A stretch of 6,001 bases of DNA from a virus (Duplodnaviria; Heunggongvirae; Uroviricota; Caudoviricetes), in the IMG/VR virus record IMGVR_UViG_3300013741_000057; one strand, written 5' to 3'. Below, one piece after another: positions 1,044 through 1,881 of this stretch. The stretch's first letter is position 1. Every line of letters begins with the position of its first letter. The translations under genes were made by a program, and so were the position numbers. The notes under the pieces were generated by a model. The model was not told the DNA's origin. It was given only the letters and a program-made list of their open reading frames with translations, and searched no databases.

Positions 1044-1069
1044 GGTACATTATGTATCTCAATGGTACA
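1044..1069. promoter_or_regulatory. Distal operator-like repeats: two GGTACAT copies 20 bp apart, with an 11-bp palindrome TACATTATGTA (1046-1056)
   Basis: GGTACA at 1044-1049 and 1064-1069. The same hexamer and its reverse complement TGTACC recur in the cI-cro control region (1807-1825, 1869-1874). This site lies between two convergent terminators, downstream of the repressor gene. Confidence 0.35.
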
Positions 1070-1080
1070 TTGTCAAGTAT

Positions 1081-1103
1081 AAAAAAACCTGCCGAAGCAG
1101 GTT
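1081..1103 (-). terminator. Rho-independent terminator of the repressor gene (minus strand)
   Basis: Stem ACCTGC (1087-1092), loop CGAA, stem GCAGGT (1097-1102). On the minus strand the hairpin is followed by a run of 7 T (plus-strand A run 1081-1087). It lies about 12 nt past the repressor stop at 1116-1118. Confidence 0.6.
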
Positions 1104-1115
1104 CATAGACATTGA

Positions 1116-1790
1116 TCAGGCTTTAATTTTGTATCTTCTTGGTTTTCCTGAGAAAATAACTGTACCAATGATAGAGCAATTACCGTTTATCTTAATGTAA
1201 GGCTCAGGCCAGTTGGGGTTTAATGCTTTGAGATAACGCTGTGTCCCATCTTCTATCAACCTTTTGAAGGTGGTTTCGCCTGTATCGTGCATCAATGCAA
1301 TAACGTCATCGCCGTGGCAGGCTGGTACTTCTGGATCGACAAAAATCATGTCTCCCGGACGATACTCATCAATCATTGAATCACCAATCACCCTCAATAT
1401 ATAAGTCATTTCGCCACAGGGTACAGGGCAGGGATACGTTTCTGTTGTGCTCAAATCAACCTCAGAATAGCCAACTTCTTTCCATGCTCCGGCCTGTACC
1501 CATGATATGACAGGGACTAACGTTATTTGTTTATTAGTGATTGAAACATCAGGTTTTTTTGTGATGTTCGTTGTCTGGTGTTCTTGATCAAGCCATCCGA
1601 CAGGCAGGTCGAAACATTTTTCGATGTGCCGTGCCATGCTGTCACCGATATTTTTAGTAGCACCATCTCCCATAAACCTGCTGGTCTGGGTTGGCTCGCG
1701 ATCAATCATAGTGGCAAAGGAAGAATTCCCGCCAACACCATCTCTCAGTTTTCTGGCGTTAGACCGCCGGATGTCATGGACTGTTTTCAT
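1116..1790 (-). CDS. Phage cI-type repressor: N-terminal HTH (XRE-like) plus C-terminal S24 LexA-like autopeptidase domain
   Basis: 224-aa ORF. The C-terminal half carries the S24 signature: catalytic Ser in VIGDSM and Lys in TTFKRL, and a candidate Ala-Gly cleavage site in VQAGAW. The N-terminal part has an HTH-like segment ending in LPVGWLD. It is divergent from a cro-like gene, the classical immunity arrangement. Confidence 0.9.
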   Translation of the reverse strand: MKTVHDIRRSNARKLRDGVGGNSSFATMIDREPTQTSRFMGDGATKNIGDSMARHIEKCFDLPVGWLDQEHQTTNITKKPDVSITNKQITLVPVISWVQAGAWKEVGYSEVDLSTTETYPCPVPCGEMTYILRVIGDSMIDEYRPGDMIFVDPEVPACHGDDVIALMHDTGETTFKRLIEDGTQRYLKALNPNWPEPYIKINGNCSIIGTVIFSGKPRRYKIKA

Positions 1791-1806
1791 AAAGAAATTA
1801 AAACCT

Positions 1807-1825
1807 TTGTACCGATAAGGTACAA
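1807..1825. promoter_or_regulatory. Perfect palindrome TTGTACC-GATAA-GGTACAA, candidate repressor operator
   Basis: 7-bp perfectly complementary arms with a 5-bp spacer, read directly from the sequence. It sits between the cI start (1790) and the -35 of the rightward promoter. Confidence 0.45.
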
Positions 1826-1830
1826 GTATC

Positions 1831-1858
1831 TTGAAGGTTCATCTCAATCATGTAATAT
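1831..1858 (+). promoter_or_regulatory. Candidate rightward early promoter (PR-like) for the cro operon
   Basis: -35 TTGAAG (1831-1836), 16-bp spacer, -10 TAATAT (1853-1858). The predicted start lies just upstream of the RBS GGAGG (1866-1870) and cro ATG at 1881. Confidence 0.45.
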
Positions 1859-1870
1859 GTATACCGGAGG

Positions 1871-1881
1871 TACATATTGTA
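1871..1881. promoter_or_regulatory. Second palindromic site TACATATTGTA overlapping the cro RBS and start codon
   Basis: TACA-N3-TGTA, the same architecture as TACATTATGTA at 1046-1056, and it includes GGTACA at 1869-1874. Its position downstream of the -10 would suit an operator that blocks the early transcript. Confidence 0.3.

Follow-up and report, generated by a model that had tools for sequence, protein, structure and literature searches.

Putative left and right operator-promoter regions around the repressor gene of an SfV/e14-type lambdoid prophage

Short palindromes built from GGTACA and TGTACC occur on both sides of the repressor gene of IMG/VR virus record IMGVR_UViG_3300013741_000057, a member of the Caudoviricetes, and the question they raise is which regulatory elements they form. 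The window, that is, the whole stretch of 6,001 bp that was analyzed, had been examined before from its letters alone. That sequence-only reading proposed two operator clusters resembling the left (OL) and right (OR) operators of phage lambda, and offered as alternatives a looping-only auxiliary operator or two palindrome types used by different proteins. Judged by its sequence, the window is the immunity and early region of an SfV/e14 (ymfK-ymfT-ymfL) lambdoid prophage. Within it, the motifs very probably constitute the two operator-promoter regions, OL and OR, of an SfV/e14-type genetic switch.

The GGTACA/TGTACC motifs are genuine and are not a product of chance. The hexamer GGTACA is found 9 times where 2.0 are expected, a count that none of 200 shuffles reached, and 17-mers of the form TGTACC-N5-GGTACA with at least 10 of 12 matching positions number 3, against 0.18 expected. 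The strings reported earlier all sit where they were placed: GGTACAT at 1044-1050 and 1064-1070, TACATTATGTA at 1046-1056, TACATATTGTA at 1871-1881 and TTGTACCGATAAGGTACAA at 1807-1825. The unit common to both regions, as returned by a repeat finder, is a 17-bp dyad, TGTAYC-N5-GGTACA. Scanning for this dyad gave sites at 1808-1824 (12/12 positions), 1053-1069 (11/12) and 1858-1874 (10/12), with weaker ones at 1825-1841 (9/12) and 1033-1049 (8/12). Two of the palindromes have to be redescribed: the supposedly perfect 19-bp palindrome at 1807-1825 consists of 7-bp arms around a non-symmetric 5-bp center, GATAA, and TACATATTGTA, which is present, is merely a 4+3+4 palindrome whose right arm is not conserved in relatives. 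As additional half-sites we rejected the GGTACA hexamers within cI (1161, 1420 and 1495), which have no partner half-sites and are not conserved at synonymous positions. As separate operators we rejected TACATATTGTA and the larger palindrome at 1848-1884, whose outer arms are not conserved.

The gene between the two clusters (1116-1790, minus strand) encodes a cI-type repressor of the YmfK family (224 amino acids (aa)). It is annotated ymfK, belongs to phrog_4 (repressor), and matches Peptidase_S24 over residues 93-212 (1.3e-26) and the lambda CI C-terminal domain (1.9e-9); its translation shows the marks of self-cleavage, namely the Ala-Gly in VQAGAW together with GDSM and FKRL (an Ala-Gly site and a Ser/Lys dyad). 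A search for Pfam helix-turn-helix domains in the repressor gave no match at E<=0.01; residues 1-74 match the phage repressor family phrog_12107 (1.9e-12), and residues 1-76 match PDB chain 5d50_A, deposited as 'Repressor' (E 0.0026). Divergent from cI, whose start lies at 1790 on the minus strand, and separated from it by a gap of 90 bp, is the gene for a 66-aa Cro-like repressor, YmfT (1881-2081, plus strand), a YdaS-family helix-turn-helix protein (YdaS_toxin, 1.5e-5; HTH_3; phrog_35) resembling CP-933P Cro (8co2, E 0.01). A terminator scan found the intrinsic terminator of the repressor gene at 1085-1104 (minus strand), and the SfV and Ayreon records also mark a terminator there. As previously described, the distal cluster lies just past this terminator, about 755 bp from the proximal one.

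This immunity module is shared with well-known phages. Positions 971-2700 are 96.9% identical to Shigella phage SfV and 97% identical to phage cdtI, Stx2c phages and Ayreon, and the cI-cro-orf36 DNA is 96.9-97.4% identical to SfV and cdtI; SfIV also carries the module. The RefSeq names of the genes in the region, ymfK, ymfT and ymfL, are those of e14 and are so annotated in E. coli. Throughout, the operator half-sites are the same as in SfV, except for one spacer base and one OR1 base. Such near-identity of cI, cro and operator DNA to SfV and cdtI would imply the same immunity specificity. For a wider comparison, one scan of species-representative genomes yielded 19 loci with repressors 73-99% identical, from Escherichia, Klebsiella, Pseudocitrobacter, Atlantibacter, Leclercia, Phytobacter, Enterobacter, Pantoea, Trabulsiella, Kluyvera, Limnobaculum, Rahnella, Edwardsiella and others, and the anchored alignments used below contain 20 sequences.

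On the right, three 17-bp sites of one consensus overlap the hexamers of both the predicted rightward promoter (PR) and the predicted promoter of the repressor gene (PRM). The OR3-position site, TGTACC-GATAA-GGTACA (1808-1824, 12/12), lies inside the PRM -35 and spacer. The OR2-position site, AGTATC-TTGAA-GGTTCA (1825-1841, 9/12), covers the PR -35 and abuts the PRM -35, and the OR1-position site, TGTATA-CCGGA-GGTACA (1858-1874, 10/12), overlaps the PR -10 by its last base and also covers the start site and GGAGG (1866-1870), the ribosome-binding site of cro. The "putative operator region" of the SfV record (L001 3837-3905) corresponds to 1807-1875 of the window and spans exactly these three sites.

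Both promoters were read from the DNA itself. PR, on the plus strand, would consist of a -35 TTGAAG (1831-1836), a 16-bp spacer and a -10 TAATAT (1853-1858), with a start at about 1865; the 20 loci retain its CTTG and TG.A..AT at a fixed spacing. PRM, on the minus strand, would have a -35 TTGTAC (1825-1820), a 17-bp spacer and a -10 TTTAAT (1802-1797), of which ATTA.A is at least 90% conserved at a fixed distance from the cI ATG. Because this -10 ends 6 nt before the cI ATG, the start site would fall on A1790, and we infer a leaderless cI mRNA. The center of the 1825-1841 site is 43 bp upstream of the predicted PRM start.

On the left, the distal sites coincide with a leftward promoter (PL) that a promoter scan scored at 11/12 consensus positions: -35 TTGACA (1076-1071), a 16-bp spacer, -10 CATAAT (1054-1049), minus strand, with a predicted start at about 1042. 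OL1, TGTATC-TCAAT-GGTACA (1053-1069, 11/12), takes up the spacer that separates the two PL hexamers. OL2, TATCTT-ATATA-GGTACA (1033-1049, 8/12), has a perfect right half and a degenerate left half and covers the predicted PL start; the two sites are 20 bp apart center to center. The promoter annotated in the Ayreon record (L002 3013-3040, minus strand) maps, through alignment anchors, to 1049-1076 of the window, and in the phage records examined the left operator sites themselves carry no annotation. The sites noted earlier at this end stand, while the strong promoter on which they lie had gone unnoticed. TACATTATGTA is the junction of the OL2 right half-site, the PL -10 and the OL1 left half-site.

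When the PL-proximal leader (1042-930, minus strand) was folded in search of nut- or put-like RNA, it did no better than shuffled sequence (z -0.52), and an Rfam scan of positions 1-2200 returned no match. We also observed that a leader of about 60 nt just past PL (971-1030, transcribed from the minus strand; GCTACTTCGTGGGCGTCCTGCCTGTT on the plus strand) is common to about 12 of the 20 otherwise divergent loci, and that the genes following it differ.

Conservation provides a further view of the sites. Relative to the repressor gene, the right-hand sites and OL1 keep their positions in nearly every locus, with the weak OR2 and OL2 sites dropping under the 9/12 threshold in a few; in other words, the operator clusters are kept on both sides of the repressor gene across related immunity regions, as the lambda-like proposal of flanking operators predicted. 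We compared pairwise identity in the half-site columns with that in the central 5 bp. For OL1 the values are 0.96 and 0.38, with 17 different centers in the 20 loci, and for the OR3-position site 0.98 and 0.35, with 16 different centers. The OR2-position site (half-sites 0.92, center 0.72) holds the TTG of the PR -35 in its center, and the center of the OR1-position site (0.92 and 0.81) is constrained because the ribosome-binding site lies within it. OL2 (half-sites 0.75, center 0.50) has GGTACA as its right half in 19 of the 20 loci. The oddities of the OR2-position site, a non-consensus A at position 1 and the half-site GGTTCA, are retained in all 20.

Further comparisons bear on this pattern. 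In PL, all 20 loci keep the -10 region unchanged and 17 of them the -35. The three GGTACA/TGTACC hexamers within cI served as an internal control, and in these loci they decay at synonymous positions. In TACATATTGTA the right arm comprises the first base of the cro ATG and the spacer separating that codon from the ribosome-binding site, and for this reason it differs between loci. The distance from OL1 to OR3 is 753-756 bp in 18 of 20 loci, a near constancy that results from the lack of indels and is uninformative on looping.

The sequence-only reading saw no obvious leftward early operon at the distal site. That operon is present, displaced by an AT-rich insert of about 600 bp (24-37% GC, approximately 380-970) after which come yfdP, yfdQ and yfdR; no leftward gene stands beside the distal site because the insert intervenes. 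The site is not promoter-less. The insert lies between PL and the early-left genes and is oriented on the plus strand, convergent with PL; it contains a rightward open reading frame (ORF) of 69 aa (711-920) and a terminator (942-963). Homology to SfV ends at about 971, and in SfV orf33 begins 100 nt past the predicted PL start. Ayreon and cdtI have the sequence of window positions 120-379 joined almost directly to PL, Ayreon linking positions ~270-378 to the PL region with nothing between. Most relatives have a leftward ORF whose start is 10-150 nt from PL on its downstream side. The insert DNA had no match among 50,697 phage records, and its 69-aa ORF none in Pfam, PHROGs or PADLOC. Positions 1-1120 are matched over at least 80% of their length in 30 E. 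coli genomes, so that most or all of the insert arrangement is carried there. The insert looks like a moron.

Beyond the insert, positions 1-379 (minus strand) hold a conserved leader and the start of the early-left operon. A 198-aa ORF beginning at position 38 runs off the left end of the window; it equals the annotated yfdP plus 78 N-terminal codons, so that its C-terminal part is annotated yfdP, with yfdQ and yfdR next. Positions 1-379 are GC-rich and 96-99% identical in mEp460, Stx2a and Stx2k phages, cdtI, Ayreon and others, and in the annotations the stretch between PL and yfdP has small hypothetical ORFs only.

Taken as a lambdoid switch, the region would work as follows. The analysis shows the sites, how far they exceed chance, how they are conserved, that they overlap promoter hexamers, and the families of the proteins; which protein would sit on which site, and in what order, we infer. 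The expected binders of the 17-bp dyad are the CI-type repressor (YmfK) and, with reverse preference, the Cro-like YmfT; the half-site centers are 11 bp apart, which suits a helix-turn-helix dimer. Repressor dimers on 1858-1874 and 1825-1841 would block PR, and dimers on OL1 and OL2 would block PL, the presumed driver of the early-left genes. Since the 1825-1841 site is centered 43 bp upstream of the predicted PRM start, a dimer bound there could repress PR and also activate PRM. PRM would be shut once the 1808-1824 site is filled, either by Cro at an early stage of lytic growth or by repressor present in excess, and repressor self-cleavage triggered by the SOS response would lift the repression. 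The exact start sites given above are predictions, and OL and OR might also form a loop over the 755 bp between them.

Several points weigh against this reading. The predicted PR matches only 8 of 12 consensus positions, falls under the threshold of the promoter scan and was not called by it, and the left half of OL2 is degenerate in the window (relatives have tGTTkC). The literature searched yielded no study of this operator and no binding or transcription data for this immunity type. The best match to the consensus is the PRM-proximal site, unlike in lambda, where OR3 is the weakest site for CI; the order of the sites and their affinities may therefore differ from those of lambda. Finally, the sites at 1808-1824 and 1825-1841 abut each other at 17 bp center to center, or about 1.6 helical turns, which would be awkward for side-by-side cooperative dimers. 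There is some room, though not much, for a switch that departs from lambda in two respects. The insert may leave PL feeding the early-left operon poorly, with OL and PL serving mainly as a looping partner of OR or as an antisense silencer of the inserted gene that is triggered by induction; and an invariant perfect dyad on PRM that abuts the next site at 17 bp may mean a non-lambda logic in which the strongest site lies on the repressor's own promoter. We consider this variant unlikely.

The alternatives that give the motifs another function altogether are less probable still. In one, the distal cluster is an auxiliary operator for looping only, without a promoter of its own, or a PL idled in this prophage by the insertion. 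In its favor, no leftward ORF of at least 40 aa follows the distal site within the window for about 1 kb; a hairpin resembling a terminator (942-963) and some 600 bp of AT-rich antisense sequence, apparently not translated, intervene; and the C-terminal domain of the repressor is homologous to its counterpart in lambda CI, a protein that forms octamers and loops. The sites nevertheless fall exactly on a TTGACA-16-CATAAT promoter, a leftward sigma-70 match at 11/12 positions that is conserved in all 20 loci and annotated in Ayreon, and the leftward genes of relatives begin 10-150 nt downstream of it; a looping-only role is not supported. The 942-963 hairpin has an internal mismatch and only four T on the leftward strand, and the matches to at least 80% of window positions 1-1120 come from 30 E. 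coli genomes. Both forms of this explanation appear improbable.

Slightly less probable again is the proposal that there are two classes of palindrome for two proteins, with TGTACC-N5-GGTACA serving one regulator and GGTACA-N3-TGTAYC (TACATTATGTA and TACATATTGTA) another, such as Cro or a CII-like protein. GGTACAT-T-ATGTATC (1044-1058) and GGTACAT-A-TTGTATG (1869-1883) are alike, and the OL copy of GGTACA-N3-TGTAYC is invariant in the 20 loci, but that invariance is explained by the right half of OL2, the PL -10 (CATAAT) and the left half of OL1, which overlap it. The second arm of the OR copy is not conserved, relatives reading GGTACATATCATG, GGTACAAAATG, GGTACACTATG and so on, and the large palindrome at 1848-1884 fails likewise in its outer arms. 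What had looked like a second palindrome type is, in TACATTATGTA, the junction of adjacent 17-bp sites with the PL -10 and, in TACATATTGTA, a TTGTA arm made of variable pre-cro spacer and the first base of the start codon. Alternatively, the dyads might act at the RNA level and not as DNA operators, for instance as hairpins that terminate or attenuate leftward transcription into cI, and a terminator scan does list 1825-1807 (minus strand) as a 7-bp stem followed by AGGTTTTAAT. This we regard as very improbable: the stem has only 3 G-C pairs, and stems that never vary offer no covariation in support of pairing; relatives have CAATGTTTAATTC, GAATGTCTAATGA and AAACTGAGAGAAT in place of the T-rich tail, which led us to reject the 1807-1825 hairpin as a terminator; and the same dyad occurs at OL1 upstream of the PL start, between the -35 and the -10.

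The remainder of the window contains other features of a phage early region. Downstream of cro lies the gene for a CII-like activator, YmfL (2113-2676, plus strand; Phage_CP76, 1.4e-14; phrog_101, CII-like, 7.7e-73). Beyond it, Rfam matches to isrK (3033-3109, plus strand; 67.9 bits against a gathering threshold of 50) and to C4 antisense RNA (3134-3221, plus strand; 83.6 bits against a threshold of 45) lie just upstream of a Rha/antirepressor-like ORF (Rha-domain gene, 3279-3620), and there is a weak match to the c4 target a1/b1 at 3020-3072. This region coincides with 'orf37: immunity region' of the SfV record and looks like a second immunity module of the P1/P7 immI antisense-RNA type; given these matches, the 342-aa ORF at 2673-3701 probably does not represent a single genuine gene. 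Masked bases form two runs of 10 N, at 509-518 and 3622-3631, the second of which breaks the end of the Rha-domain ORF.

Two regulatory genes were found farther to the right. At 5317-5643 (plus strand) a 108-aa protein consists of a LexA DNA-binding domain only (PF01726, 2.6e-19; phrog_362), without an S24 cleavage domain; a LexA-like binder of this kind, encoded by a phage and not cleavable, could act on genes with SOS boxes. At 4829-5317 (plus strand), in the replication and early-right region, lies a homologue of the PerC family of transcriptional activators (PF06069, 1.6e-9). PerC-like prophage proteins activate the locus of enterocyte effacement in enteropathogenic and enterohemorrhagic E. 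coli.

The arrangement itself is already known: public records mark its right operator region as well as PL, and the layout is the textbook lambdoid one. The analysis supplies an explicit operator consensus, TGTAYC-N5-GGTACA, and a site map for the SfV/e14 immunity group, which spans Shigella serotype-converting phages, Stx2c and Cdt-I phages and many prophages of Enterobacterales. Such a map could aid the prediction of immunity groups and the design of reporters or of induction-defective lysogens. Past annotation its significance is small, and it opens no new question.

The nearest comparison is with the SfV/e14 immunity region, which is the same module: the operator annotated in SfV is window 1807-1875, and Ayreon annotates the same PL. 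The window differs from SfV to the left of about 971, where it has the AT-rich insert with its rightward ORF in place of orf33. According to the SfIV genome paper, this phage group has no homologues of N, cII or cIII (PMC3851460); Pfam and PHROGs nonetheless call YmfL CII-like.

With lambda the region shares cI and cro genes that diverge, a right operator in which three 17-bp dyads overlap PR and PRM, another operator cluster beyond cI on PL, a self-cleaving S24 repressor and a predicted leaderless cI mRNA. Its middle right site is about 43 bp upstream of the PRM start; OR2 of lambda is centered at about -42. Unlike in lambda, the half-site sequence is an unrelated one, the right-hand sites are spaced 17 and 33 bp center to center rather than roughly 23-24, there are two left sites instead of three, the perfect dyad is the PRM-proximal one, and the place of lambda Cro is taken by a helix-turn-helix protein of the YdaS type. 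No rex genes are present, which puts OL and OR only 755 bp apart.

Among relatives studied by experiment, the closest that has this type of Cro is CP-933P (PaaR2/YdaS/YdaT) of E. coli O157:H7. In that prophage the footprints of the repressor and Cro share intergenic operators, the repressor is made from a leaderless mRNA, and the PRM side is the first to be bound by YdaS; past the repressor operon lies a PL with OL sites, which both proteins repress (PMC8630535). The two systems differ in their operators, those of CP-933P being four equally spaced palindromes with GTTTAGTAA-type repeats, against three sites here; in addition, the CP-933P repressor is without the S24 self-cleavage logic, and a toxin-antitoxin pair follows there. 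They have in common a YdaS-family Cro-like protein and an adjoining CII-like gene.

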